64,000 nt of DNA from Selaginella moellendorffii. Its lineage: Eukaryota; Plantae; Lycopodiophyta. Positions 22,150-48,449 of this stretch are shown here, piece after piece. Within the stretch, counting starts at the first letter, position 1, and each line of letters begins with the position of its first letter. Made by a program: the position numbers and the translations under genes. The notes beneath the pieces were generated by a model that saw nothing but the letters and a program-made list of their open reading frames with translations, was not told the DNA's origin and did no database searches. The DNA is taken from contig NW_003314301.1 of the NCBI RefSeq assembly GCF_000143415.4, positions 1,294,981-1,358,980 of the forward strand, read 5' to 3'.

Positions 22150-23235
22150 CCTTAGGGTTCAATGGATATATTTCATCCACTATATTGAAATTTCCATTCG
22201 GCACATGAGAGTGACTAGGGTTTTCACCAAGATGGCTATAGCTGCAGAACTAAATTTTTTGTAGGTTATGGTCTTGGCTTGTCACCATTCTGGGCTCATG
22301 AGCTTACATTCCAGAACTTAGTATGGTCTTCTTTCGATTTAACTAGTTCGAGGAGATTTATGATTTGTCTAATGGCACTATAGATTGAAGATATGAGTTT
22401 TTAACATTATACAAGAATGGCTTGTAATTTAAAATTAAACAAAGACAATGGATTTAAATATATAATACTAATTTACTACGCATTGCATGTAGCAATGTTT
22501 GGTTTACTTAATAGTAGTGTTATTCCTACTTATTAATCCAATTGATAAAATAAAAGGCATAATTATAAATATGTTTATAATTTATAAACACAAGATTAAT
22601 CTTACATGTTTGCTTAATAAAACCAAAAATTAAGTTTTATAAACAGAAAAAAATAAAATCTATTTTTATCCCAGCCCCATATCAGTAAAAAGCAATTCTT
22701 ATTTTGGAAAGAAAAGCGAAAGTCACTATGATGCATACACTACTTGGTTCATTCTAAGAAGCTTCTCTCTTTTTGAAATCAGCCCATCTTAAATACAAGA
22801 ATGATACAAAAGGACTGAAAGATAAATTTATTATATTTATTTTTATTTAAAATCACATAAAAGAGTAATGTCTATGAGAACTTATTTATTGCTCACTCTA
22901 CTTTATTAATCATCTACCTTACTTAAATATTATTTAAAGAAATATTAAAAATATAATTTGTGAGTATATAAAAATGTGCAAGTCAATTAGCCCAAAAAAC
23001 CTAACTTCTATATAGGAGCAAGTGGTCCAGATTAAAACTAATTTAATGCCTATAAAAATCCCACTATGCTAATTTTAGTGTATGACTGTTAATATTAGTA
23101 TACAACATTGTAATTGTACACTTAAACATCCATTCATCCTCTCCTCTTAGAAGAATGGAAGGTAGTTAAAGTTTTGGAGGATTAGTTTGCTAAACATCAT
23201 GCCAAACCTAGCATTGACAGCTTGTGGCAATCACA

Positions 23236-23822
23236 TGTAAGCTCATGGGCTTAGATTTTCCAAGAGGTCACTCAACCTAGTATTATTCAAACCTAAAAAT
23301 GTTTAACCTTAAGTATCCCAAGACCCTTAACTGATTGAAAAAAGGGTGCATTTTTATTTATAAACTCTTTCTCTTTATATTTAAACTTTATAGATCATCT
23401 TTTAAGTCATTCTCTTTGGTTACTTATAATTCACCATACTTCTTTATAAATTCACAGCCTCGTGAATAGAAGTTAACAGCCATAACTTTTCTGAGAGCTT
23501 CCCTATCTTTACACTCTACCCCTTCGATTGAGCCCAACCAGAGCAAACTAAACTTAGATGTTAATTAATATGTGGTGTGATTCCTTTATCCAACTAATAT
23601 AGTCGGACCCAAGACCGCTTTAATACCAAATGTAAGCTTGTGAGTATAGACTTCCCAGGAAGTCACCTAGCCCAGTACTATTCAAACCAATGATGCTTAA
23701 CCCCAAATATCCCAAAACCCTTAATCAATTGGAAAAAGGGTGCACTTTTATTCATGTGCCTTTTCTCTTTATATTTGAACCCTATAAATCGTCTCTCAAA
23801 TTATTATCTTTAGTTAATTATA
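23236..23822 (-). mobile_element. TRIM (terminal-repeat retrotransposon in miniature)
   Basis: LTRs 23236-23428 and 23631-23822, ~200-bp non-coding interior, degenerate Met-tRNA PBS (rc TGGTATTAAAGCGGTC), PPT-like end, TSD tcaca/ttaca. Confidence 0.8.
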
Positions 23823-25369
23823 TTACAAAGGTAAAGTCAACTCTGTTGGCAGTATTGAATCATGACCATATAAGAGTTTACATAGTAAATCACTAACATA
23901 ACTCTATCTTGTGATATGCACATACCAAAGAGATAGCAAATAACCATCTTAATTTGAATGTTGAAAATTTAGATACTTCACGATCATCTTTTTAAAGGTT
24001 TGAATGAGTTATTCCACTAAACCATATATCTATGGATGATAAGCACTTGTGAAAATATAGTGTATCTCCAACCAAGATGTTAAAATATGAAATACCTCAA
24101 TTATAAATTTGAAACTATTATCTGAGAGTATTTGCTTTGGATAAAATTGTTAGAACACCAATTATTGAGGTGGAATTACGCAACAACAATTACTGACACA
24201 CTAGCAAAAGTATTGACTTCTACACAACAAGTAAAGTAGTCGAAAACAACAATAACATACTCATTGCCAACAGTCCATTATGGAAGTCCTATTAGATCAA
24301 ATACCACAAACTCAAATGGATGAGAAATTATAATTGACTTTAACCATTCTTTTGTAGCACAAAAGGGAGTATTATGGGCTTGGCACTAAACACAACTACT
24401 CACATATCAGATAATATCACATTGCATCTATGGCCAATAGAAAAACTTATATAGTTTCTTAACCACACATTGATATAGCCTAGAATAGGAGAGTTATGAT
24501 AAATATGGAAAAAGCATGAAATAAATATTGAAAGTACCACCAGCTATAAATGATTATCAAAGATCAGTCCCAAGAAAGTTGTCTTTAAGGCAATATTGAG
24601 AATGTAAATGCTAAAATGGTAAATCATTAACAAGTAATACAGGATATTTAAACCCCTTACAAAACTTTTAAATCTATAGTTCAACTTTTTGAGCCTCACA
24701 AACCTTATTAAAAGAAGGTAAATCTTGTTTTGCACCTTATGGATACTAAATATTAAATATAGCAATTACCAACAGCATAAAATCTATAAGTGCTAGAATA
24801 ACAAACTTGTCAAGAACAAAAGAAGAGAGCAAAGAAGGGAGAAAAGCTTGAGAAAGGGGATTAACATCAACTATAGAACTTTCTAAATAATAAACAACCT
24901 TGAAATTATATATTTGAAGCTTTATAGCCCATTGAGCAGTATGACCAACAAAATTTTTCCGCTTCAATAATGAAGTAATTATAGCATGATCACATTTTAG
25001 CAACGTTCAAAAATTGTGCAAATACTTATGAAGCTTCTTGAAACCCCAAATTGCTATTAAACACTTATTCTCTATTGTGGAGTAGTTCACCTCTATTAGT
25101 TGTAATATATAGTTGATGTATGCAATACGATAATACTAACTAGGCACACTCGTACTTTCTTGTATTAAGACACCTCTATGATTGATATCTAAAACATCCA
25201 CACACAAAATAAAAGGTTGAGTGTAGTCAGGATGTGCCAAAACTAGAAAAGTTAATAACTCTTTGAGATCCATAAAGGCCTATTGTAAGGAACCAACTCG
25301 CCGAAGTGTCGTAGGCTAAAGGAGCCCCAAAACCATGACCAAAATGATAAAGAGTTCATCGGATGGGAC

Positions 25370-25640
25370 TAAGTCTAAGATCGAGTTCAAGACCGACTCT
25401 AAAACCGAGTTCGAGATAGAGTCCGGAATTGAGTCCGAGACCGACTCGGAGACTGAGTTCGAGACCGAGTTTGAGACGGAGTCCGAGATCCGAAATCGGG
25501 TCCAAGACCGAGTCCGAGATCGAGTCCAAGGTCGGGTCCAAAATCGGGTCCGAGATTGAGTCTGAGATCGAGTTCGAGACCGAATCCGAAGTCGGATCCG
25601 AGATTGAGTCCGAGATCGAGCCAAAGACTAAGTCCGAGTA
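25370..25640 (+). repeat. Degenerate hexamer tandem array (GAGTCC/GAGACC/GAGATC/GAGTTC) inside element B LTR
   Basis: Visible directly; also in LTR copies at ~31750-32020 and ~32460-32730, with a decayed relative at ~41890-42020. Confidence 0.9.
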
Positions 25641-26489
25641 CTAATACGGGTCAAGGGGTGAAAGCCCAAAGCGTGTGTCTCCCAGGGGGGGGGCGCTGCA
25701 GGGGGTTCCAAAAGTATAGTAGGGATAGTGAGGTCCAGGAACCAGTTTTGAAGGAACTCTCCAGTGGGGCTTCCAAACTGACTTGAGGTTGGGACTGGGA
25801 CCGAGGGGCCTTGGGTGGGAGTGAGCATGGACTTGGTTGGTGCCGGAGGGGCCATCCAAGGAAGTGCTCAAGAGCAGCTCTCACTCCCGAAAGGGAAACT
25901 AACTGCGGTGCTCCCGACTCATGTGGAGTGGTGCCCACTTGAGTACCATGCGGCTCATTGGTCCTTGCCCTTCCTAGAGGCTTGGACCTTCCCTTCGGGA
26001 TGGAAGTGGGGGGGTAAAGGTACCCATATTGGGCCGTTAGGCCACGATGTTTCGCCCCGGCGTCCCGAAACATGCGTTGCACCCGAGACTTGGGATTTAG
26101 AGGGTCCCATGATCAAGTCTTGTGGTACCAAGGGATGTTAGGAACCTGGAAGCTTGGTGTGCTTGGCTGCTTGTGCTTGTGGGGAGTGTAGCCGAACCTT
26201 AAGTCCAGTCTAACCCGGGGAGGGGGGATTGGGAGAGATTTGGGAATTCGTGGATGGATGGCTAATACTCCATTGCTCGTGTAGTGAGTAGCTGAAACCA
26301 AGTAGGACCAAGTAGGAGCTGGTACCACAGGCAGGAACCTTGGTAAGGGAACTTAGCAAAAGCCAAGGCAGTGTTGGACGGATAGACGAGGTAAGCTGGC
26401 AAATTAGAAAGGAAAAATTTGTAGCTTACAATTTGGTATCAGAGCCTTTTCCTCAGTTCTAGCGAAGGATAGAGGCGGATTGCTGGGAG

Positions 26490-29400
26490 ATGGCAAAGCC
26501 AGGGCGGAAGCAAACCAAGGCGGAGACGGAACCTCCTCTAGAGCTGGAGCTTCCGGTTGAACAAGAGGCTATGGATGAGGAATCCTTGCATGAGGAGGAC
26601 TTTAGTGAGGAAACTTCCAAACAGGAGTCCAATGGCGAGGTTTGGTCGTCCAAGGCTCGATTGGACGTGCTAGAAGGACAGTTGGCATAGACTAATGCCC
26701 TACTGAAGACTCTCGTACGCAAGCTAAAGCGTGACAAGAAGCAGAAGAAAAAGAGAAAGACTGCGGATGCTGGCAGTGCAGAAGGTGCGGACCCTTCAGC
26801 CGGGACTAAGGCAGAACCAAACAAGGTCAAATAGACCGAAGTAGAATCAATCCCTCAGGCAGTTCCCAAGTACAAACCAAAGCCCCCACCGGTCTTCAAG
26901 GGAGTAAATGACTATAAGGTGGTGGAGGATTGGTTTTACGATATGGAGGACTACTTTCGAGCGTTGCGATTACCGAGCTCGGAGAAGGTCCCATGTGCAA
27001 AACCATACTTGGCAGATAATGCCAAGTCTTGGTGGAGAACGACGGAGGCCAACGAAGGACCGGTGGCCACTTGGGACATGATGAAGGCGAGGATCCGCGC
27101 AATATACATTCCTCTGAATGCTACTCTGCATCTGAGAGATGAGCTGAGTAGGCTGAAGCAGACTGGAACCATCCAGGAATATGTGAATGGGTTCATGGCA
27201 AAGAGGATATTTGTCACGGGCATGGGGGATATGGATGCCTTCCATGCCTTCATATCAGGTTTGCAAACTTGGGCTCGCGGTGAGGTGATGCGCTGGAACC
27301 CGACCAACTACAAGGAAGCGTTAGATGCGGCCATCAAGGTGCATTTCAATGATAACTTGCGAAAGGGGAACGCAATGGGGTCGGGATCCATGTTTAGCAA
27401 AGGGGCCAAACCAAGGGGAACATATAACAAAGTTAAATTCAAGAAGAGTTTCTCTAAGAATTAGTCCTCGGGGTTGTAGAAGGGCAAATCCGGTGGCCAG
27501 CGAGCAAGTACGTGGGGGAGTCAAGCAAAAAGGGACAAACCCACGGATAAAAAGGTCAAGTCATTTAGCAGCGTGGGAAACAACGTATGCTACAACTGCG
27601 GTGAAGCGGGACACTTTTCGAGGAATGTCCCTACCCGAAGAAGGCCAGAGCCAATATGGCCATTAAGTCGGATGAAGTCCAAACTGAGGTATGTGATCCA
27701 GTCCCTAGCTCAAAGTTACTCATTACATGAGCAACTTTGGTAGAGAGTCATTCGCGACATCTACTAGCCCTCCGAGGGAAGCTCAGGGGTAGCTTTGTTA
27801 AGATCCTTATTGACACAGGTGCTTCGGATAATTTTGTGGCTGCAAACATAGTCTGGCAAGTCGGACTAACGGTGCAGCGGCTGGGCGAACCAAAGACTAT
27901 AGAGTTTGTTCAAGGTAGCCAAAGCACCGATGAGGTACTTCGAGAAGCGAGAGTCAAAGTAAGGACTTGGAAAGTAGACATGGACTTCACCGTGTTGGAC
28001 ATGGCGGGATTTGACGTGATCTTCGGGATGGATTGGTTTAATTGGTTTGTGGTAGCTCTACATGGACAAGGTAGGAACCTTGTGGTACTGGCTAATGCCT
28101 AAGGAAGAAGATCCAGGGTGGAGGCCCAGGATCTAAAGGTAGGGCAATGCAAGGCCAAAGATTCGTGCTTAAACATAGTGTTCACGAGAGGACAACTCAC
28201 TAAAGGGACCAAGGCGGCATTTTTGTGTTTACTCTCGGTGAGAAGTGACAAAAAGACAGGAATGGAAGAAGTATCTTTAATGATCTAATGGGTGTTGGAC
28301 CAATTCCAGGATACCATGCCAAATGAGCTACCGGCGGGGTTGCCCCCCACACGACCGATAGAATATAAGATTGAGCTGGTTGAGGGTGCTGAGGTGGTGG
28401 TTCGTCCCCCCTATCGTTTGAACGAAAAAGAACTTGCAGAGCTCAAGTGCCAACTAGAGGAGTTGGTGGACAAAGGGTATGTTAGGTTGAGCAAGTCGCC
28501 GTATGGGGCACTGGTGCTATTTGTGAAAAAGAAAGATGGATCTAGGCGTATGTGCATAGACTACCGGTTACTCAACAAATATACAAAGAAGAACAAGTAC
28601 CCTTTGCCAAGGATTGAGGACTTGTTCGATAGGTTGGGAAAGGCAAAATACTTCTCGAGGATTGACCTAAGGTCAGGATATTACCAGATCAGGGTAGCAG
28701 AGGAAGATGTCGAGAAGACAACCTGTCGAACGAGGTATAGGAGCTTCGAGTTTCTGGTGATGCCCTTCGGGCTATGCAATGCGCCGGCAACGTTTTCGGC
28801 GTTGATGAACCATATCTTTGTACCCTATCTAGATCACATTATGGTCGTCTATATTGATGACATCCTGATCTATAGTGAAACGTTAGAGGAGCATGCCAAA
28901 CACTTGACGAAAGTGTTTGAGAAACTAAGGGAACATCAGCTGTATGCTAAAGAGAGCAAATGTGACTTTGCTCAACAAAAGGTAAAGTTCCTCAAGCATG
29001 TGGTGGGCAAGGACAGGCTCAAGGTGGATCCTGAGAAGGTCCAAGCGATCCAGGATTGGGAGCGACCATCGAATGTACACGAGTTAAGGGCATTCCTGGG
29101 GCTATGCAACTACTATCGAAAGTTTATCAAACACTATTCGAGAGTAGCCCTGCCCTTAACGGACCAAACGGGAAAAGGGAAGATGGTATGGACAGCAGAA
29201 TGCGAGGCGACATTCGTCCACCTCAAAGGGAAGTTGAGGAAGGCTCCCGTGTTGGCGTTACCAGACTTTGGTAAGGACTTTGAGGTAGAAACAGATGCTT
29301 CAGACTTTGCGTTGGGCGCAGTTTTGAAGCAAGACAACCATCCAGTAGCGTTCTTCTCGAAGAAGTTGGACAAAGCTCAACGGAAGTGGCCTGCCCATGA

Positions 29401-31261
29401 GAAGGAATTGTTTGCGGTGGTCAAGGCGCTCAAGGAGTGGCGACACTACCTTGGGAGACACTTCAAGGTTTACACGGACAATGTGGCAACGAAACACTTC
29501 TTGTCACAGCCCGACCTGAGGGGAAAACAAGGTCAGTGGGCCAATGCTTTGGCCAAGTTTGATTGCGAGATTCTGTACAAGCCTGGGAAGAGCAACATCA
29601 TGGCAGATGCGCTAAGTCGAAAAGCGAGCTTGAAGTTGGCTATATCTAGCGCGACGGCAACCTTTTGGGATGATGTGCGAACCGTATACGAGAACGATGG
29701 TCTAGCACAATAAGTGTTTCTGAGGAATCTAGAGGCACGGGAAGCTCATCAGAGAGGTGAGCTGCCAATGGAAGAGAAAACGGGCTATGCGGAATGCAAT
29801 GAACTCATATATTACAAGCAAACGAGGGTGTATGTTCCAGAAGGGGAACTAAGGAAGGTAGCCTTAGAAGAGTGTCATGACGGACCTCTTGCGGAACATG
29901 GTGGAGTGCCCAAGACAATGGGCTTACTTAAGAGGAAGTACCACTGGCCAGATATGGCTAAGGATGTCCAAGACTATGTAAAGACATGTCCAACATGTCA
30001 GTAGATCAAAGCCGTGACTAAGGCTAGTGGGGGCTTGTTACAAAGCATCCCAATTCCAGATTGTCCGTGGAAATGTCTTACAATGGACTTCATCACGGGA
30101 CTTCCCCTAAGCGAGGGGTTCGATGCGATATTCGTGGTGGTGGATTGATTTTCGAAGATGGCACATTTCATACCCACCACAATGGAAGTGGATGCGGAAG
30201 GTGTGGCGAAGCTGTTCTTTGAACAAGTGGTTCGAGTGCGGGGAAGGCTAGAAGAGATTATCTCAGATCGAGATAAGATCTTCACCAGTAGGTTCTGGAG
30301 GACACTCCTAAAATAGTATCGCACCAAATTGAAATTCAACATAGCCTATCACCCACAGACAGGTAATGGGTATTAAGTCAAGATTGATGGCACTAACACT
30401 TCTTGACAGACGGACAAACAGAAAGGGTGAATAGGCAGCTGGAGGATTATTTGCGATGCTATGTCTCGAGAGACCAGACCGATTGGGTAAGTCATTTGGG
30501 ACTTGCAAAAATGTGTTATAACAACTCACCACATTCAAGCATTGGGGTGAGTCCATGGGAAGTCATCAATGGGCGAGCTATTGAAGGTCCTGTGGAACTC
30601 AGCGTGGCCAAGTATCATGGAGAGTTACCCGCAGTGGAGGCATTCACTGCAGAAAGACTCAACATTTGGAATCTAGTGAGGGATTCCTTGGAATGAGCTC
30701 AACAAAGGCAAACTAAGTACGCAAACCAGAAGCGCCGGGATGTAGAGTTCCAAGCTGGGGAGAAGGTGTGGCTAAACACCAAAAACCTCAGGCTACCAAG
30801 TGGGATCAGCCGGAAGTTGACCCAAAGGTAAAAATGCATGTATTCCTGTAAATGAATTGATCTTGAGTTCCTTAAGCAGGTTCGCGAGGCCTTACGAGAT
30901 TGAGGCTCAAATCGGTAAAGTGGCTTACCGTTTCTGACTTCCTCGAGAGATGGGGAAGATGCATCCCGTGTTCCACGTGAACTTACTCAAGCTGTATTTT
31001 GAGGATCCGCTTCACAAGGACCAAGTAAGACCTTTACTTGAGGTTATCCAAAGGGAAGAGGAATACAAAGTCGAAGCCATCCTCAATGCGCGCAAGAGCA
31101 AGCGACAAGGACGCGAGGTGAGAAAGTTCCATGTGAAGTGGAAAGGATTTCCACACTACGAAGCAACATGGGAACCGGAGGAAAACCTAGCGAACGCGCG
31201 AGATCTAGTGGAGGAATTTCTGCAAGGCAGAACTCTATGTACTTATGCAAAGTTCAATTAA
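26490..31261 (+). pseudogene. gag-pol of element B (Gag, PR, RT, RNaseH, spliced IN, chromodomain)
   Basis: One reading frame can be reconstructed after reading through premature stops, one 1-nt deletion in the zinc knuckle, and removing introns 30363-30409 and 30828-30879; RT-RH is an uninterrupted 473-aa ORF (28292-29713). Confidence 0.9.
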
Positions 31262-32071
31262 AAGTATCAATTTGAGAAGTTGAGTAATGGCATATGTTGG
31301 GACCCGAAGGCGCGCTGAAGGTAAGCTAATTAACATGGGTTAGCTAGGTCGACCAGGTGTAGGGAACTACGCCCGACTCCCTGCGGGGATGTCGAATCCG
31401 TAGACGTATTCTACGGAGGTTGGGTTCGAATCCCAACCCCCTAGTAAAGCAAGGCTGGGTTCAAGTCCCGACCCCATACTAGGGCATGGTGAGGTGAGTA
31501 TAGGGACACTTATATTCCATTGTCATGGGCTCTTGGCCGGGGAGGCTAACTTAGGCACACCGCTAAGTGGGGGGATGCCCTCGGAGACATGGTTAACAAG
31601 TCGTACGATAAAAAAGAGACGTTCGATGTGGGCATCGAACTTCTTCTATGGGTGGTGGAGTTGTAAGGAACCAACTCGCCGAGGTGTCGTAAGCTAAAGG
31701 AACCCCGAAAGCATGACCAAAATGATAAAGAGTTCATCGAATGGGACCAAGTCTAAGATCGAGTCCAAGACCGACTCTAAGACCGAGTTCGAGATAGAGT
31801 CCGGAATCAAGTCCAAGACCGACTCGGAGACTGAGTTCGAGACCGAGTTTGAGATGGAGTCCGAGATCCGAAATTAGGTTCGAGACCGAGTCCGAGGTCG
31901 AGTCCGAGGTCGGGTCCAAGATCAGGTCCGAGATCGAGTCTGAGATTGAGTTCGAGACCGAATCCGAAGTCAGATCCGAGATCGAGTCCGAGATCGAGCC
32001 AGAGACTAAATCTGAGTACTAATACGGGTCAAGGGGTGAAAGCCCAAAGCGTGCGTCTCCCGGGGGGGGGG

Positions 32072-32171
32072 NNNNNNNNNNNNNNNNNNNNNNNNNNNNN
32101 NNNNNNNNNNNNNNNNNNNNNNNNNNNNNNNNNNNNNNNNNNNNNNNNNNNNNNNNNNNNNNNNNNNNNNN
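32072..32171. other. Assembly gap (100 N) directly after a poly-G run
   Basis: 100 Ns; the following 32172-32375 nearly duplicates 25080-25283. Confidence 0.99.
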
Positions 32172-35100
32172 GAGTAGTTCACCTCTATAGGTTGTAATAT
32201 ATAGTTGAGGTATGCAATACGATAATACTAACTAGGCACACTCGTACTTTCTTGTATTAAGACACCTCTATGATTGATATCTAAAACATCCACACACAAA
32301 ATAAAAGGTTGAGTGTAGTCAGGATGTGCCAAAACTAGAAAAGTTAATAACTCTTTGAGATCCATAAAGGCCTATTGTAAGGAACCAACTCGCCGAAGTG
32401 TCGTAGGCTAAAGGAGCCCCAAAACCATGACCAAAATGATAAAGAGTTCATCGGATGGGACTAAGTCTAAGATCGAGTTCAAGACCGACTCTAAAACCGA
32501 GTTCGAGATAGAGTCCGGAATTGAGTCCGAGACCGACTCGGAGACTGAGTTCGAGACCGAGTTTGAGACGGAGTCCGAGATCCGAAATCGGGTCCAAGAC
32601 CGAGTCCGAGATCGAGTCCAAGGTCGGGTCCAAAATCGGGTCCGAGATTGAGTCTGAGATCGAGTTCGAGACCGAATCCGAAGTCGGATCCGAGATTGAG
32701 TCCGAGATCGAGCCAAAGACTAAGTCCGAGTACTAATACGGGTCAAGGGGTGAAAGCCCAAAGCGTGTGTCTCCCAGGGGGGGGGCGCTGCAGGGGGTTC
32801 CAAAAGTATAGTAGGGATAGTGAGGTCCAGGAACCAGTTTTGAAGGAACTCTCCAGTGGGGCTTCCAAACTGACTTGAGGTTGGGACTGGGACCGAGGGG
32901 CCTTGGGTGGGAGTGAGCATGGACTTGGTTGGTGCCGGAGGGGCCATCCAAGGAAGTGCTCAAGAGCAGCTCTCACTCCCGAAAGGGAAACTAACTGCGG
33001 TGCTCCCGACTCATGTGGAGTGGTGCCTACTTGAGTACCATGTGGCTCATTGGTCCTCGCCCTTCCTAGAGGCTTGGACCTCCCCTTCGGGATGGAAGTG
33101 GGGGGGTAGAGGTACCCATACCGGGCCGTTAGGCCACGGTGTTTTGCCCCGGCGTCCCGAAGCATGCGTTGCACCTGAGACTTGGGATTTAGAGGGTCCC
33201 ATGATCAAGTCTTGTGGTACCAAGGGATGTTAGGAACCTGGAAGCTTGGTGTGCTTGGCTGCTTGTGCTTGTGGGGAGTGTAGCCGAACCTTAAGTCCAG
33301 TCTAACTCGAGGAGGGGGGATTGGGAGAGATTTCGGAATCCGTGGATGGACGGCTAACACTCCATTGCTCGTGCAGTGAGTAGCTAAAACCAAGTAGGAC
33401 TAAGTAGGAGCTAGTACCACAAGTGGGAACCTTGGTAAAGGAACTTAGCAAAAGCCAAGGCAGTGTTGGACGGATAGACGAGGTAAACTGGCAAATTAGA
33501 AAGGAAAAATTTGTGGCTTACACCTATTTACAATCTTCAAACCAGATGAAAGATGACATTAACAACTTTAGCAATATTTGCAATAGTGTAGTGCAACCAA
33601 AAATATGATCAACAAAATAACTAAGATACTGCATCTTACCCATGAAGCATTACACATTATTCACACATTTTGGAGTAGGGAACTTTAGAACAACCATGTG
33701 AAACACAAATCTCTAAACCCCAAAGTGGAGCTGAAAAGGTGCCATATAGTAGTGGTCGAAGTGGAAGTCCAACAAGTATGACATGTTTGGGCTAAAAGCT
33801 TTGACTTGGAAAGTTGAGAACAAGAGTGGAATTTTGATTAAAGTGCTCAAAGAATAAGCATGAAGCAATCAATGAATGAGTTTCTAATAAGGGATATAAG
33901 TGTAAGCAACCAAAGAGAACAACTCGAGAAGCAATCCATAAAAGTTCAAATATAGAGGGAAAGGGCCCATGAATAAAAGTGCACCCCTTTTTTTAATTGG
34001 TTAAGAGTCTTGGGATATTTAGGGTTAAGTGTCTTGGGTTTGAATAATACTGGGTTGAGTAACCTCCTGGGAAGTCCAAACTCAGGAGATTACATTTGGT
34101 ATCAGAGCGGTCTCAAGTTTGACTCTGTTGGTTCGCTAGGGGGATGGTCCAAAGTTGAGTTGAGCTCACGAGTTGAACTCAATTCAACACAAGTCAATGT
34201 AAGTCAATGTAGTCAACTATAACTCTTACAAAGAAAATCTATGTTAAAAAAATTAAGGTTCTGACAAACTTTAAAATATTAAAATATATGAATACCTAGG
34301 TCAAAAGTTTCTACTAGATTGAGTTATTTAGAAAATACTAAGTTCATGAGAACCTATCTATTTTCTTACTAAAGACTATCTTTACAACTATCATATTTTG
34401 ATTTTCTTACAATTCATTAAAAATCCTATATGAATCAAGATAAATTTTTTGAAGGGTAGCCATTAATAGTATATAATGGTAAGGCAATATATATTTACAC
34501 ACAATTCATTAATTCTAGAGTTCTTAAGTAAAATAAAATATCTGTAAGTAAGAGTTGTAGGGCAAATCAATGTGAGAATATTAATTTCCTTTCATTATCA
34601 CAATTTTCATCTAGTCCTTATTAGAATGTAAAGACCATTATATAGTGATTCATATAAAAAACTCTACTTACTTGCCTATAGCACAATCCTCCTATATGAG
34701 AAAACTAAGGTATATTTTTGGGATGAATCCCCACTAGCATTTTTCGAGAGTCATTTGTGAACAATAATAATAGAAATCAAAATATTTTAAAAGACTCAAA
34801 AGTGATATCACATCAAAGAATCAAGTTTATCTACATTTCCAAGATTGAGAGGTAATCTCACATAAGAGAATGCATGTGGGCCTGTGTGCTTGCATACTCT
34901 ACTACTATAATATAATTTATATTTCCTTGTGTATTTTTCTAGAAAGTTCAAGTGTAGAAAAAAATATATATAGATGGTCATTAAAATGATAAATATTCTA
35001 GCATGTGTATTTAGAATTCTAGAAGCTCTTCTATTCATAAATAGACTATGCTTTTGAAATCTCATTTCTGAGATTGACATTTCAAGAATCTGAGTATTAT

Positions 35101-36600
35101 TAGTGTCATAATAAATAAACCTTATTCCCAAGACTAAAAATTAATATATAAATGCCAAAAAAGTTAGTTATTATAATATTTTTATTATCCTTACACTCCT
35201 AAAAAATTTAATATAGAAATGGCTCAAAAGAAAGTCATTACTACTCGTCTATAAGTCCCTAACATCTCATATTAATTTCTACCTTCATCCCTAAGGTTTA
35301 CCAACATTCCACATTCATCTCCACCATAACCATATTACAATCTTCTTTCTATTAAAGGTTTTTATAAAGTCAAACTAAAACTCTCTGTATACAAAATTTT
35401 GAATATTGTTACTAAAGAGTGATTACCTCTAATGCTTCAAGAGCAGTGCCGCATGTTTTTGCAAGATCTTACTCTTGGTATGGCAAGACTACTTAAAAGC
35501 ACAAAATGCTATTATATTCAATGTCTAATATGCTACTTTTTTTTTGGACAAGACAAATGTCTTCATTACAAAATTTTCTTAAATTGCCTAACAATGGGCG
35601 TAGAAAGTGTGGATGTACAATAAATTCAAGAATAAATTATAGACACATACCCACTATTTCTTCATGGTGAGGAACAACATCCCCATGGGAAACAACGCAT
35701 TAGCTAGTGTAGAATATGGGTTTTTTAGGCTATTGACAAAGTCAATGATGGGGAGTTTTCTCAAGTTGAAGTCTATTACACCCAATCCATAGAAGATCTC
35801 ACTCTTGATTTAGTGGGAATTAATGAACAAATTGAGAGTTAATTCTAAGATGCCTAATATGCCTTTTTTTTCTTGGGTCAGGACATTTAAAAAGGGCTTT
35901 TATAGTTTTCTTGAGCATTGCTACATAATTAGTGTTATCACTTCATATAATTGTTGATAGGATATTGAAGGATGAGATGACAACACACAAATATTACAAA
36001 TTGATGGTTGCATGTGAGAATACCAATTTGCAATTTTGGAATATGATATTAACATTGATAACTAACACTGACACTATTACTGACGATTTGATATATGATA
36101 GGATTTTCTTCTCAAGTAAGGATTCATTTAACTTTCTTCTATGTCATCATCAACATGTCATTTCCTTCTATGCCTCCGTCTATATTGGGATTGTGCTCAC
36201 TTTGCATTTGTTAAGCTATAGCCTTTGCATACTTTAATAGACTTCTAAAACCTCCAACTCTAAAAACTCAAGGTGATTGTGATATATAAAACAAAACTAA
36301 ATATGTAATGAAATCATAATAAATATAAATTACCTCCTTGAGGTTAGAGGTAACTCTAAGCCAGTGTTTAAATAAATGATGTTTTTTAATAGCAAACACC
36401 AATCTACTAGAATTATATGCTACCTCCACCATATAACCATTACTTATTGTGCAATCAGTCACAATACTATCTAGTGGGTAATAGAGCTCAAGCAAAACTT
36501 GCATTGCTGATGGAGTTTCAAATCAATACCTAGGAATGTATTGCAAATCTACTCAACCACAAGATTCAATATGATGTTAGTGGCACTATTGGGCTCACCC

Positions 36601-37916
36601 AAGGCCAGAAACTGCCCAAGGTGGCGAGGCCGAGCTGGACCTCGGGCAGTTTGGGGATCCGGGGGCCCAAGGTTAACCTGGGGCCTTCGAGGCCAGAAAC
36701 TGCCCGAGGTGGCGAGCCGGACCTCGACCTCGGGCAGTTTGCGGGTCCAGGGGCCTGAGGTTATTTGAATAACCTCGAGCCCTCGAGGCCAGAAACTGCC
36801 CGAGGTGGCGAGCAGGACCTCGACCTCGGGCAGTTTCCGGGTCCGGGGGCCCGAGGTTATTTGAATAACCTCGGGCCCTCGAGGCCAGAAACTGCCCGAG
36901 GTGGCGAGCCGGACCTCCACCTCGGGCAGTTTCCGGGTCCGGGGGCCCGAGGTTATTTGAATAACCTCGGGCCCTCGAGGCCAGAAACTGCCCGAGGTGG
37001 CGAGCCGGACCTCCACCTCGGGCCCTCGAGGCCAGAAACTGCCCGAGGTGGCAAGCCGGACCTCGACCTCGGGCCCTCGAGGCCAGAAACTGCCCGAGGT
37101 GGCGAGCCGGACCTCGACCTCGGGCCCTCGAGGCCAGAAACTGCCCGAGGTGGCGAGCCGGACCTCGACCTCGGGCCCTCGAGGCCAGAAACTGCCCGAG
37201 GTGGCGAGCTGGACCTCGACCTCGGGCGGTTTCCGGGTCCAGGGGCCCGAGGTTATTTGAATAACCTCGGGCCCTCGAGGCCAGAAACTCCCTGAGGTGG
37301 CGAGCCGGACCTCAACCTCGGGCAGTTTCCGGGTCCGGGGGCCCGAGGTTATTTGAATAACCTCGGGCCCTCGAGGCCAGAAACTGCCCGAGGTGGCGAG
37401 CCGGCCCTCAACCTCGGGCAGTTTCGGGGTCCGGGAGCCCGAGGTTATTTGAATAACCTCGGGCCCTCGAGGCCAGAAACTGCCCGAGGTGGCGAGCCGG
37501 ACCTCAACCTCGGGCAGTTTCCGGGTCCGGGGGCCCGAGGTTATTTGAATAACCTCGGGCCCTCAAGGCCAGAAACTGCCCGAGGTGGCGAGCCGGACCT
37601 TGACCTCGGGCAGTTTCTGGGTCTGGGGGCCCGAGGTTATTTGAATAACCTCGGGCCCTCGAGGCCAGAAACTGCCCGAGGTGGCAAGCCGGACCTCGAC
37701 CTCGGGCCCTTGAGGCCAGAAACTGCCCGAGGTGGCGAGCCGGACCTCGACCTCAGGTAGTTTCCGGGTCTGGGGGCCCGAGGTTATTTGAATAACCTCG
37801 GGCCCTCGAGGCCAGAAACTGCCCGAGGTGGCGAGCCAGACCTCGACCTCGGGCAGTTTCCGGGTACGGGGGCCCGAGGTTATTTGAATAACCTCGGGAC
37901 CTCGAGGCCAGAAACT
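36601..37916. repeat. GC-rich tandem array of 96-bp and 51-bp palindromic units
   Basis: 17 occurrences of GGCCAGAAACT spaced 88, 96 (x10) or 51 (x5) bp; each 96-mer holds two inverted repeats. Confidence 0.95.
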
Positions 37917-40230
37917 ACTTGGCTTATACCCTATATTATTTTGTCAATAACATAGGATACATTTATATTGTATGTAAATATTTTTAAATTTTTTAAATGA
38001 TGGTATATATAGCACCTTTCAATATGTAAGTTATTTGAAAATTAATATTAGTTTTCCTATTTATATAGAAAGGATGCATTCTAAACAAGATTTCATACAT
38101 ATTTTGGATTCATAACAGAACTTTAAAGAGTATAAATCTGGTATGTTGCATTATTATATTAAATATATTGTACTATTTTAATCTATGAATGGATGAATCC
38201 ACATCCATAAATTTGTTTTGTATTGTGTATGAACCTAAATTATAGGCATATGCTCTAAATGTCATTGAGCAGTATTTGTATATATGGCTAAAACTCAACT
38301 TATATTGAGAATCAAAACTATGTCATCGAAGAATTATCATTACTAACATCACCTAACACTAAAGATTTGACAAACTATTGATATTTTACATGTGATCGGA
38401 TATCTTGCATCTCCATGCTAAAGCAGAATGTTATTACTATCATCACTAACAATCAAACTTCACGTGCTGAAAACTTTTTCTTGGATTTGTGTGCATGCAA
38501 TAGACAACAGAACATATGATAATACTATCACACTTACACATATTAGATATGCTATAGTATTTAAATTCATTTGTACATTGTTATTATTCTTCTTATTGAT
38601 CTCCTTAAATCTCAATTTATGTTTCACTATAGATTTTTACAAGTAGCATAAGGGAGATAGAGAACTCCAAAACCTATAAAGAAAGATGAAAAGGTTCTTC
38701 TACATTTTTGAGATCACCCACCGCTTTTGTTCTCTTAAAATCATGTTTCTAAAAGTTTTTTATGTTGCCATTTTTATCTTCATCTTGGCTCTATTTTGTT
38801 AGAGGTTGTGATCTGCAACAATACTAGTATGGTTGTTGCTTGGTGTTTTATCTTTCTAGTGTTGGCAAGGGTAGAAAGATAAAACATAAACCGAACTTTA
38901 TGGAGATTCAAGTTTATGGATCTCCAATCAAAGTGTTTAAACTAAAATGAATGTGTAGAAAGAGTTAGTCATCATCCTCTCTTCCTCTTCCAATTCAAGT
39001 GGAAAAACTATGCTAGTGTTAGCCCCAAATTCATGAATTCCATCTTCAGTAATATTCAAAGCTATTAGTAATGTTTTCCACTTTTCCCACTTCTCAGTCA
39101 AGATACACTTATTTCTATATATACCCATGAGTGAGCTTCCATCCTGCTACAACAACAATATCTTCTTTGATCTAAAACCTCTTATCAACAACACTAAAAG
39201 GGATGGAGATCAAGTAAAATGTCTAAAATTGGCGTAAGATCAAGACCACACACCTTTAGCATTTTGAAGGAATAGTGTCTATAGTTTATTGTTGTAGGCA
39301 TTTAGATTGCATAGATGAAACATGTAATCAAAATAGCTATAGAAATTTTATATTTTTTGAATTTTATATTATATTTCTATAATCAATCCTCTTGCCTGTG
39401 ACACCATTATTATTGCATTCAAGTGTTGGTTTTGCAAGAATTTTCCTTTATATTGTGCCATTTACAAGGGCAAAATGTATTACTTTCTTCTGTGGGATAG
39501 AGTGGTTAGAAGAGATGAAGTCTCTTATTTCTTCTTTATTTTTGTGGCCTTTTAATATTATCTTTTTAATTAGAACCAACCACTTGAGGACCTCACATAC
39601 ACCCCAATTATGAATCTCTTAAAAAATAAGCACTTAAGTTAGTATTCTTTTGAGGTAAAGAAAGAGAAGATAAATTTGTATAAAACATGTTTATTGGATT
39701 TGATATATACTATAAAGCAACCTTCAAAAGCATTAGCATTTAAGAAAGAAAGATATTAGAAACAAGGCCTTTTGTTCAGATATTACATAATGGGATAAAG
39801 AGGAAGAGGACTTCACCAGCTCAAAAAGTGGCAATTGTAGTTGAGAAAGTGGTTCATGGCACATCTATAAAGTACAATTCCTAAGCTTCTATTAGTAATA
39901 TGAAAATTGTTCACTTAAAGTGTTCTTTTTTCTTTATTGATGGTATAGGTCTTGGAGTAAAAAGCCTAATATTCAATAATAGACTTGATATTAAGTACCA
40001 TTTTGCTCCAAGATATTGCACATTGTCAAAATAAAAAATGGAGAGTACACAATTGTTATTCAATACTTTCCTTGCATATATCCAAACTTTACTAAGTACA
40101 AGAAATATAGGAAGGCATATATATACTACATTTTCATCAACACTTTACACTAAGATCCTAAAGTGGATATTCATATACATCATGCAAGCTTTATTACTAC
40201 TAAGTTGTAAGACTTTTAGAGCTAATAATA

Positions 40231-43422: not shown

Positions 43423-46400
43423 TGTGAGTGCTTGAAATATGGAAAGGGAATACAGAAAATATGCATATCAATTAACCCAAAAACCCTAACTTATATACAG
43501 AAGCAAGTAGTCTGGATTGAAACTAATCTGACAGCTACCAAAATCCCACTATGCTAATATTAGTATACGGCATCGTAGCCATATACTTGGCCCTCACATC
43601 ATCCCCTCCTCTCAGAATAATAGAAGACCATCAGGGTTCTTTTATAGATGGGCCAAGATCTGGAGGAACATCAAGAGGAGGCATTGGTGGATCTATAGGT
43701 GGTATTAATTGCTCCTAATCCCTTTATATAAAGTGTTTCAACCATTGCACATGCACAATCTCTAGAGGATCGGCCTGTTGGACGTTATGCCGAACCTCAT
43801 AAACTTGTGGTCCCACTTGCCACAACACCCGATATGGTACTTTTCAATAAGCAAGGAGTCACTTAGATAAACCACATACCATAAGATGGGGAAAACAGAC
43901 CAACATCAAGTCATCCACTTTGTACTCTGCAGGTGGACAATGATGGGAGTTGTAGTGCTGTTGTTGTCCCACTTATACACGGCTTAAGTGCTCGGTAGAC
44001 TTTGCTCGGATAAGTGGAAGAATGTTTGTCAAATACTGATCCCATAACCTAGCATCGGTAGCTCGTGGCAATCGCAAAGGTAAACCAAGCTCTATTGGTA
44101 ATATTGGATCATGACCATATAAAAGTTTATATGGTGAAACACCAATAGAACTCTACACCCCTATGACATATCCATATTGAAGAGACGGTAAATAACGATC
44201 CCAATCCGAATGCTGAAAGTTCACATACTTTGCGATCATCCCTTTGAACGTCTAAACGAGTCGTTTCACTAGACCATTTGACTGTGGGTAATAAGCACTC
44301 ATAAAAGTGTGGCATATCCCCAACCAAGACGTCAAAACATGAAATGCCTTGGCCATAAATGTGGGACCATTATCCGAAAGAATCCGCTCTGGACAAGATT
44401 GCTGGAACACCACTCGATTGAGGAGGAAGTATCCAACAACAGTTGCAGAGGCACTAGTAAGAGGACCAAGTCAAATAGTCAGAAGCAATAATAATATACT
44501 TATTACCAACAGTCAACTGTGGAAAAGGTCCCATAAGATCAAACGCCACCAACTCAAACAAATAGGAAACTGCAATCGACTCCAACCATCCTTTCGTGGC
44601 ACGAGGGGGAGTATTACAAACTTTGCACTAAACGCAGTTACGCACATACCGAATAATATCACATTGCATCTCCGGCCAATAGAAAGACTTGCACAGCTTT
44701 TGGTCATATGACGATGTCCCATATGCCCACCTAGAATAGGAGAATCATGGTAGGCATGTAGGAACCATGGAATAAAGATAGAAGGCACCACTAGCCATAA
44801 ATGATCATTAGAATCTGTCCCCACAAAATAAAGAAGGCCGTTTTCAAGGCAATATTGAGAATGTAAATGCCGGAAAGGCAATCATTAGCAAGTGATGTAG
44901 GATTCTCAAACTCATTTCAAAGCCTTCGAATCCACAACTCAATCTTTTGAGCCTCGCGAACCTCATCAAGAGAAGGTAGATCTTGTTCTGCGCCTTGTGG
45001 ACATTGAATGTCAAGTATAGCAACTGCCGTCGGCACAAAATCCTCGTCTAGAAAATCCACAGATGTTGGAACAACAGGCTTGTCAGAAACATGATAAGAG
45101 AGTGGAGAAGGAAGAGGAGCTCGAGAAAGGGTATCAGTATTAACTATAGAACTCCCTGGGTGATGAATAACATCAAAATCATATATCTAAAGCTTCAAAG
45201 CCCATCAAGTAGTACGACGAACTAGGTTCTTCTACTTCAATAATGAAGTAACAGCAACAAGTAACGTCTGAGAACCATATAGATATATATGAAGTTTCTT
45301 GAAACCCTAGACTGTTGCTAAACACTCCCTCTCTGTCGTGGAGTAGTTCATCTCTACTGATTGTAATGTACAGCTTATATACGCAATAGGATGGTGTTGA
45401 CCACGCACACTCGAGCTCTCTTGCATTAACACACCTCCAAGACCAATGTCATAAGCATCCACATGCAAAATAAAAAGTCGAGTATAGTCAGGATATGCCA
45501 AAACCGGAGAAGTTGTCAATAGCATTTTGAGATCCCCGAACGCCCACTCACAATCCGGAGACTAGATGAAAGATGATGATGATGACTTCAGCAATGCTCG
45601 CAATGGTGTAGTGCGATTAGAAAGATGATCCACAAAACAACCAAAATATTGCACCTTGCCCAAGAAGCGCTGGACATCATTCACACACTTCAGAGTAGGG
45701 AGCTTTAGAACAACCACAAATTTGTCAGAATCAACTTACAAACTTTCACGAGAAATATAGTACCTAAGATAAGTTGTGTCCTTGGACCCAAACACGCACT
45801 TCGACCGCTTCAACTTTAAACCAACGTCATGTAGCCGATCGAACACTTTACAAACATCACAAATGTGCTCCTCCCATGTCCTTTCCGAGTGGATCAAGAC
45901 ATCATTAATGAAGTTAGCAGTCACCTTTGGCATATCACAAAGAACCTCATCCATCATCTGCTGGAAAGTTGCTAAAGCATTATTCAAGCCAATGAATAAC
46001 AACCATTAAATGTTAGAATATTCAAGCATCACCAAGAACTTGTACAAACCAAATGGTGTACGAAAAGCAATCTTAAGAATATTTTTTTCAACTATTGGTA
46101 CTTGCCAGTACCCAAAAGCAAGATCTAACTTGGTGAACTAGCGATTTTGCCCTAGACGATCCAAAAGATCAGCAATGTGAGGAAGAAGGTACACATCCGA
46201 GATTGTCACTTTGTTTAACGGACGATAGTCGATGCAGAAACAAATACTCCCATTAGGCTTCGTCACAAGATGAGTTTCACATGCCCAAGGACTCCACGAC
46301 TTTTGAATAACACTCTTCTCCAACATCTCCTTGACATTTGCACGTAAAATCTTGATCTCTTTGGGTGACCAACGACGAACAGAAACCTTGATTGGACGAG

Positions 46401-48449
46401 CATCCTCGATTGGAATCGGATGACATATGGCAATCTTGGCCCCAGAAGATAAGTCAAATTCAAAGAGATCAGAATACTCCTTTATGAGTCAGTCAACCAC
46501 TGCAACACAAAGATTGTCAGAGGGATCAGAAAAGGGAAGAGTAGAATAAAATGGAAACACAGGAGGAAATAGTGGGGGAACAAAAGTAATGAAAGCAGAG
46601 GTAGAAATAGAGGGACAAAGAGGTATGGAAGTGAGAGGAATGGATAAAACATAAGGAAGTATGAAACAAGGGGGAGAAGCCTCAAAGTCACACTTGGCAT
46701 AATTGCGCTGCAACCAATTCATACCAAGAATGAGGTCAAAAGCTTGACTCGGCACCACCCGCAACGACTGTAGCTCAAGCTTGAGATCGCCCACATGTAT
46801 AACTATGTCTGCCTCATCCTGTGCACACGCATGTGTACTACCGTTGCCATAAAGTATGAAAACTGGTTCCATCGCATGACGCAAGTGTAGACGACAACGT
46901 GTAGCAACAGATCGAGCAATAGAAGATAAACTTGAACCTGTATCAACTAATATGGAGAGAAGAATAGGAGACCTCTTGTTATAAAAACAAGCTTGGAAAG
47001 TAAACACTAGATGAACCAATGCTAAGTGAACCCCTTGATGATACTCCCGAAAGAAAGATGGAAAGGTCACTAACTTATTTATGCAAGGTCCCTCCGTTAC
47101 TCATGCAACTCCTCATTTCCTGGATGCACCTCGGTGTCCAAACCTTCCATTGCAGCAGCACCAACGGGTTGTTGACGCCAAGGTCTCCACCCAAAAATGG
47201 AAGTTGCCAATCCAGAAAATGCCGACAACACCGATAACTATGACCAACTTCATCACATGCTCAACAGTAAACATCATGGCCACAACTACGTCCTCGCCCT
47301 TGTCCTTGGACTCGAGTAGTAACAACATCAACCTCCATTGGAATAGGACCATCACTCATAGAAAGTGGAGCTGAAGGATGTGTAGTGAGAAGTGGAAGAG
47401 GCGATATCTTATAACGTTGTGCCAAGTAAAGAGTGTCGTCAAGGGTGGCGGGAGCAAGTGCATACACAAGTCTAACAAGATCTTGACGAAGTGTTGGCCA
47501 CAACATTCCTAGTTTGATCCGCTCCGACATATTGGGTTCCGCACGAAGTAAAAAACTTCGGAAACGAACGCCAAATTACATCATTGACTCAGATGGCTCT
47601 TGGCGAAGACGATGCAATTGTTGGAAGGCATCATCACAATTGTCAGCATGTTTGAAGGTGCGTTTGAAGATGTCCGGGATGCATTTGTAGACAATGCAAT
47701 TGGGTCCAAGTCCACTCCAATCACACTCTAATCCCTATCAAACTATTGTACCATTGCAATGCCGTCCCTTGAAAACATGTGAGAAACTCATGCAAACGTC
47801 GAGCATCATCCCAAGAATGATATGTGGCAATCACTGTAAAGTGATTGAACCAATGGTACACATCATCCCTAGGATTTCCATAAAAGAACTCCAACCGAAC
47901 GTAAGGATTAGCACCAAGAGTAGGAGGAGTTGTACCACATGCCGTGAATGCAGCTATCAATTAAGTTTGGTTGTTCAATTGCAAACACATAGCATCAAGC
48001 AATTAGACTAACTATTGCTCTAGAGTCAGAGGAAATTATTGATCTGCCATGAAGATGAATAAAAAAGAAAGAGCAAAAGAAGAGAAATGATAAAAAGCTA
48101 AAAGGAAATGGTAGATCTAGACAATGCAAAAAGCTAGATTTAAACCAAAATCCTAAAAGGGAAGAACAAAAGAAGGAAATAGAAAAAGTTAGATTTAGAC
48201 GATGCAAAAGCTAGATCTAAACAAAAATCCCAAATTCAAGCATTCCTCAGGGATAATCAAAGGTGCCCTTCGTCTCCACCAATGTGAGTGCTTAGAATAT
48301 ATATAGAAAATGTGCATATCAATTAGCCCAAAAACCCTAGTTTATATACAGGAGCGAGTGGTTCGAATTGAAACCAATCCGACATCTACCAAAATCCTAC
48401 TACACTAATATTAGTATATAGCATTGTAGCCGTACACTTGGCCCTCACA
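43423..48449 (-). mobile_element. Full-length but degenerate Ty3/gypsy element (element D) with short LTRs and no chromodomain
   Basis: LTRs 43423-43598 and 48283-48449; PBS rc TGGTGGAGACG; PPT rc GAGAGGAGGGGA; gag, protease LVDTGSS, RT (CIDYRPLNKVT), RNaseH (LHVDAYDIGLGGVL), integrase; TSD ATAT. Confidence 0.92.

Follow-up and report, generated by a model that had tools for sequence, protein, structure and literature searches.

According to the accessible part of a 2025 review, plant LTR retrotransposons generally lack introns, with Ogre and EVADE named as exceptions. In the accessible sections of the wider literature, introns or splicing are described for Ogre, EVADE and copia elements, BARE1, the env gene of Bagy2, and CRR among plant LTR elements, and Cer1 is described as splicing an accessory gene. 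Ogre, a Ty3/gypsy element of the Tat clade, keeps an intron in its DNA, makes its whole polyprotein only from spliced RNA and is partially spliced, as far as the available portions of the reports go (PMC6317226, PMC4408406, PMC12786077). BARE1 and the Ty1/copia element EVADE also keep a short intron in their DNA, according to the accessible text (PMC3735527, PMC5580714), and BARE1 is described there as translating a capped, partly spliced RNA pool while packaging only RNA from a second pool, which is uncapped and unspliced and has the R repeat (PMC3735527). In the same partly accessible accounts of BARE1 and EVADE, splicing yields a Gag-only RNA and the unspliced RNA gives full Pol.

The locus analyzed here is assigned to SM1-Galahad, a chromovirus family of Selaginella moellendorffii, which resembles Ogre in its intron kept in DNA, its partial splicing and its likely dependence on spliced RNA for the whole polyprotein, and resembles BARE1 and EVADE in the short introns kept in DNA. 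It differs from Ogre in that its two introns of 47-52 nt lie inside integrase folds and its RT would be made without splicing, and its logic is opposite to that of BARE1 and EVADE, because its full Pol would need splicing. Unlike in all three of these elements, the splice would set integrase only and not the Gag:Pol ratio. Membership of the Ogre clade was rejected, because the locus has PR and RT in one frame, introns in integrase and a chromodomain, whereas Ogre has its intron between PROT and RT, no chromodomain and a Tat-type structure. Penelope-like elements and tyrosine-recombinase retrotransposons keep spliceosomal introns and belong to other retroelement orders, without a DDE integrase. 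In two reviews of DIRS elements, the strings 'intron' and 'splic' are absent. In their accessible parts, none of the cited sources on intron-bearing elements (including PMC2864245, PMC12786077, PMC10309623, PMC5718144, PMC6839031, PMC4408406, PMC12477314, and PMC6317226) puts an intron inside integrase, and the open literature covered here (PMC and bioRxiv, with subscription journals, Repbase and two REXdb supplements outside the coverage) holds no report of one.

SM1-Galahad was described by Novikov et al. (2012, PMC3350952), and the accessible part of that paper reports hundreds of copies about 95% alike, a consensus built from several copies, and no intact copy. The published element is about 7.5 kb long, with LTRs of 1076/1146 bp containing poly-G tracts and a tRNA-Met primer-binding site, and its coding region is given as ORF1 of 3885 bp (1295 aa) without a chromodomain, ORF2 of 316 bp, and ORF3 of 309 bp with a group I chromodomain (PMC3350952, accessible part). 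The 3' part is thus read there as two extra short ORFs, and the strings 'intron' and 'splic' are absent from the text (PMC3350952). Novikov et al. place SM1-Galahad with Galadriel (PMC3350952), and Neumann notes discordant chromoviruses in Selaginella, in the parts of both sources that are accessible. The element was thus known before, and its introns have no mention in the accessible text of that description. SM1-Galahad is a known family with an unrecognized, RNA-supported feature among intron-keeping LTR elements. Its sister family in the same genome, SM2-Galahad, also has a group I chromodomain and is reported as one uninterrupted ORF of 1577 aa (PMC3350952, accessible part), compared with 1557 codons here without the introns. 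Compared by description, SM2-Galahad likely represents the intron-free ancestral state. A stored protein of the same length, P0071 (1577 aa), was rejected as SM2-Galahad, because it is a Centaurea protein and the length is a coincidence.

The window, the whole 64,000-nt stretch of S. moellendorffii DNA that was analyzed, contains the element on the plus strand. A 1147-bp 5' LTR (25284-26430), bounded by TG..CA and containing 12-bp tandem repeats and a poly-G tract, is preceded by the target-site duplication CCTAT (25279-25283), and the identical 5-mer recurs directly after the final LTR end (33523-33527). The motif at 26434-26445 is what we take to be a primer-binding site of the tRNA-Met type, the type of the SM1-Galahad site. 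The reading frame starts at ATG 26490. Exon 1 (26490-30362) encodes gag, the CCHC motif, protease, RT, RNase H, the integrase HHCC finger, and the first two catalytic Asp residues (30086 and 30266). After intron 1 (30363-30409), exon 2 (30410-30827) encodes the rest of the integrase core, including the catalytic Glu (30421), and the first part of the GPY/F (SH3-like) module; its beginning matches Ty3 Gag-Pol 1269-1324 (PDB 7q5b, E 0.0055). After intron 2 (30828-30879), exon 3 (30880-31261) encodes the remainder of the module, matching SH3_Tf2-1 positions 43-63 of 64 in Pfam (E 0.0044), and the chromodomain (about 31064-31222; Pfam Chromo PF00385, E 3e-16). A purine-rich tract, an imperfect PPT, lies at 31648-31661 ahead of the 3' LTR (31662-33522), which is interrupted at its poly-G tract by an assembly gap (32072-32171). 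The order gag-CCHC-PR-RT-RH-IN-chromodomain found by Pfam is that of Ty3/gypsy chromoviruses, and the TG..CA LTRs, PBS, imperfect PPT, target-site duplication and chromodomain after integrase are also those of a chromovirus.

This copy is decayed, with 13 premature stops (11 in exon 1, one in exon 2 at 30694, and one in exon 3 at 30935) and a one-base frameshift near 27621. The true LTR pairs agree at 372/402 and 504/531 positions. The stretch 32072-32990 is an assembly artefact: beyond the N gap, the assembly duplicates the 5' flank together with the first half (about 650 bp) of the 5' LTR, with no mismatch over 25118-25935. The run of G is 9 long in the 5' LTR and 10 or longer at the gap; the published SM1-Galahad has 11-25. 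The initial part of the LTR (25350-25661) is a degenerate 12-bp tandem repeat, and the 5' LTR contains a single TATA 4-mer and no TATAWA. Both LTRs carry a CTAAY..YAG run resembling a branch point plus acceptor and overlapping GTGAG (26262-26289 and 33354-33380), which could mark a leader intron. The target-site duplication is the same 5-mer as that of the SM2-Galahad exemplar, by chance or target preference. Elsewhere in the window, a second, frameshifted and decayed Ty3/gypsy remnant lies at about 43900-47100 on the minus strand, with related pieces upstream of the element at 22900-25000, and a tandem array of partly palindromic units of about 96 bp, with long open frames on both strands, occupies 36578-37996.

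The host, element length, LTR length, poly-G tract and two ORF lengths of the locus match SM1-Galahad. Counted from ATG 26490, the frame reaches the stop within insert 1 after 3884 bp, or after 3885 bp (1295 codons, as in the published ORF1) with an extra base at 27621, and the extra base is carried by most contigs of a DNA-like run, X10 (depth 270.6 of 366.6). The frame from ATG 30950 has 309 bp up to its stop, equal to the published ORF3, and the middle ORF is 318 bp here versus 316 bp for ORF2. By these published features, and not by nucleotide alignment, the element is identified as a dead copy of SM1-Galahad. Because the published ORF1 length corresponds to an end at the stop within insert 1, this insert is not peculiar to the window copy.

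The preliminary description had proposed that two spliceosomal-type introns split the integrase, and its reading of the sequence was borne out. The inserts of 47 nt (30363-30409) and 52 nt (30828-30879) both have GT..AG ends; only one of the six equivalent cut positions listed for insert 1, and one of the five for insert 2, gives GT..AG, and in both cases it is the proposed one. Neither length is a multiple of 3 (2 and 1 mod 3), and each insert, if retained, gives an in-frame TAA (30374-30376 and 30829-30831). Their removal restores both frame and motif: the distance from Asp 30266 to the Glu of GQTE (30421), the catalytic Glu of D,D(35)E, is 35 codons, compared with 50.7 if insert 1 is kept. 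HPQT and the GPY/F-type motif lie 149 codons apart once the inserts are removed but 182 apart if they stay, and among the 45 homologs carrying both motifs, 32 show an HP-to-GP[FY] spacing of 149-151 residues. The motif split by insert 1 is continuous in stored homologs (73 occurrences). Among random segments of the element, a GT..AG cut is allowed by 30/4705 (0.6%) at 47 nt and by 45/4700 (1.0%) at 52 nt.

Other features of the inserts are also intron-like. Their G+C contents are 0.38 and 0.33, and that of the exons is about 0.48. Intron 1 has a branch-like CTAAC 14 nt before its end, and intron 2 has only a weak TTGAT. The proposed size match with host introns stands for the 52-nt insert, which lies within the range of 52-103 nt shown by the 8 introns in the annotated model of one host gene in the window, but the 47-nt insert falls just under that small sample. 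This host gene neighbors the element and has 100% identity to a protein of Selaginella moellendorffii. The GT..AG ends, branch-point-like motif, host-like size and AT richness are those of a U2-type spliceosomal intron. Short direct repeats of 5 and 4 nt flank the two inserts and are too short to indicate origin, and matches of the inserts to the rest of the window do not exceed 10-14 nt. Because intron 2 cuts within the SH3/GPY-F module itself, and not between module and chromodomain, its retention would be no clean chromodomain switch. A weak test gave no sign of intron 1 in other lineages: of 184 stored proteins, not one terminates directly behind HPQ[TS]. Protein searches with exon 2, in which 11/45 and 1/4 candidates passed, gave no near-identical family protein (best identity 61%), and scans of 193 and 11 stretches found no related locus.

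Because the window copy is dead, the test of splicing needed other copies of the family. Four probable-RNA runs from four studies (X1, X2, X4, and X7), of 14 contig runs marked as possible RNA, were used, their RNA status being a guess. At mostly 90-95% similarity to the window, their contigs derive from other copies. The preliminary description had asked for reads across the predicted junctions, and both inserts are skipped in probable-RNA contigs exactly at the predicted GT/AG ends. The exact 47-nt GT..AG skip is found in two of the four runs, X2 (depth 9.36, side 255) and X4 (depth 10.1, side 25), and the exact 52-nt GT..AG skip in X2 and X7 (depth 59.2, side 252). A single X2 contig of 1083 nt lacks both introns. 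Intron 1 is retained in contigs of X1, X4, and X7, and intron 2 in one X4 contig at depth 2. In X4 and X7 the retained intron 1 is one base shorter and has internal differences, with GT/AG unchanged among the 40/96 differences listed. Raw RNA reads that matched (12, 3, and 0) were too sparse for junctions.

An adjacent X2 contig of similar depth, not joined to the spliced one, reaches further upstream, to pol, which hints at a spliced RNA longer than an integrase-only message. The X7 contig of depth 59 carries foreign sequence ahead of position 30329, retains intron 1 and lacks intron 2; given the foreign sequence, it is not a full element transcript, and it probably represents a host-driven transcript of a truncated copy. 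The inserts are removed exactly in RNA, as guessed for these runs, and present in DNA. The exact skipping in probable RNA together with the family-wide presence indicates, as judged from sequence, that both inserts function as spliceosomal introns and have survived reverse transcription. None of the three outcomes named beforehand as contrary to this (inserts unique to one copy, unconserved GT/AG ends, and no splicing) was found. We consider it likely, at a probability of roughly 0.8, that full integrase plus chromodomain is made only from doubly spliced mRNA and that new genomic copies are reverse-transcribed from unspliced RNA.

The introns are also present in the DNA of the family. Intron 1 occurs in other copies (contigs 90-99% alike to the window). 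In X10, which carries another organism label than the RNA runs, 1265 contigs were aligned and cover 30/30 bins, and the depths of the intron-holding bins are 410 and 309, compared with 284-378 in the next bins. No joint was found at either intron in X10 at a listing depth of about 2 and a total depth of about 300-400, and two joints of depth 2.3-2.5 are listed elsewhere; among 8 of 1267 pieces viewed individually, none spans an intron junction. Since assembled contigs drop rare variants, rare intron-less DNA copies are possible in X10. These data bear on whether the introns are leaky, so that spliced RNA is copied too and intron-less daughters, rare, silenced or purged, supply the integrase and perhaps the skipped contigs. 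The full-length RNAs with and without the introns would share the PBS and LTR ends and differ by 99 nt only, artificial introns are lost on retrotransposition in reporter assays, and Logan contigs would drop rare variants, all of which fit such leakage. However, X10 has no skip at the depths given, Novikov et al. found no intact genomic copy (PMC3350952, accessible part), and one contig has intron 1 and lacks intron 2, as expected of RNA intermediates. We regard leakage as unlikely.

The spliced frame appears to have been under selection. In exon 2, 15 of the 22 listed differences between the window and the transcribed copies are silent, where 6.8 are expected by mutation class (P 0.0003), and 6 of the 8 sites varying among runs are silent (P 0.02), although methylation-driven mutation at third positions could inflate this silent excess. 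Exon 3 shows no significant excess (6/14 listed differences silent versus 3.9 expected, P 0.17). Of the 96 differences, 40 were listed, and the four of these in intron 1 were dropped, so that the test rests on 36. The premature stops of exons 2 and 3 are sense codons in all covering contigs (4/4 and 3/3 runs). The unspliced frame has 1295 codons and encodes Gag-PR-RT-RH and an integrase ending four codons before the position of the catalytic Glu. If only intron 1 is taken out, the frame has 1431 codons, and without both introns it has 1557. As had been proposed, full integrase plus chromodomain is readable only without both introns, as judged by the frame count, the D-35-E spacing and the exact skipping.

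These results also argue against non-autonomous spread, in which the inserts crippled the integrase of a founder, the family used SM2-Galahad integrase, and splicing is incidental. An intact sister family of hundreds of copies does exist in the same genome (PMC3350952, accessible part), and retained forms are common among the RNA contigs. Against this stand the silent-site excess in exon 2 among intron-bearing copies and the similarity of exons 2-3 to intact homologs (32-42%), which are as close as the integrase part of exon 1 (35%, P0068). Moreover, two independent inserts both have exact, used GT..AG ends, with a CTAAC branch-like motif in intron 1. Non-autonomous spread is therefore quite improbable. 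Domesticated integrase genes do gain introns, so the region could in principle be a host gene with ordinarily gained introns; this is very improbable, since the introns lie within a full element with LTRs, PBS and a target-site duplication, its family numbers hundreds of copies, and the window copy is dead. That the inserts are chance intron-like indels of a dead copy, as its 13 stops, single frameshift and flanking 5- and 4-nt repeats might suggest, is refuted by the presence of intron 1 in other copies, its setting of the consensus ORF length, and the exact skipping of both inserts at GT..AG.

Under the preferred reading, splicing for integrase and copying from unspliced RNA, the spread of the family with both introns implies copying mostly from unspliced RNA, and we infer from the family-wide retention that unspliced RNA is the packaged form. 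Because spliced and unspliced RNAs differ by just 99 nt, something must separate them. The introns would have been gained in the SM1 lineage and would persist because spliced RNA stays out of replication. There may be two RNA pools as in barley BARE1, one capped, spliced and translated, and the other unspliced and alone packaged and copied. By analogy, this would be the most likely sub-mechanism, with a chance a little short of even; capture of unspliced RNA by Gag, either during translation or in the nucleus, is possible if doubtful, and selective loss of intron-less daughters takes the remaining share of the probability. Integrase would enter the particle from spliced mRNA, and the likely effect in a single-ORF element is a low level of integrase compared with Gag and RT. 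Control of targeting through regulated splicing is possible, although the position of intron 2, within the SH3-like module, makes it doubtful. We tentatively suggest, as a fuller model with less than even odds, that the integration step alone is under host splicing: unspliced RNA would give particles, cDNA, and a catalytically dead integrase, active sorting would bar spliced RNA from replication, and how often two recently gained micro-introns are spliced would decide, by tissue or stress, whether and where the cDNA integrates.

LTR elements are expected to lose spliced introns, and reporter assays depend on this loss, yet a family of hundreds of copies keeps two in its integrase core. The introns explain the absence of an intact copy in the published survey of SM1-Galahad, and annotation based on ORFs can call intron-bearing families dead in genomes with small introns. 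The 99-nt difference between the RNAs is a clean natural test of how genome RNA is discriminated from mRNA, and the single-ORF sister family in the same genome makes the intron gain in SM1-Galahad datable.
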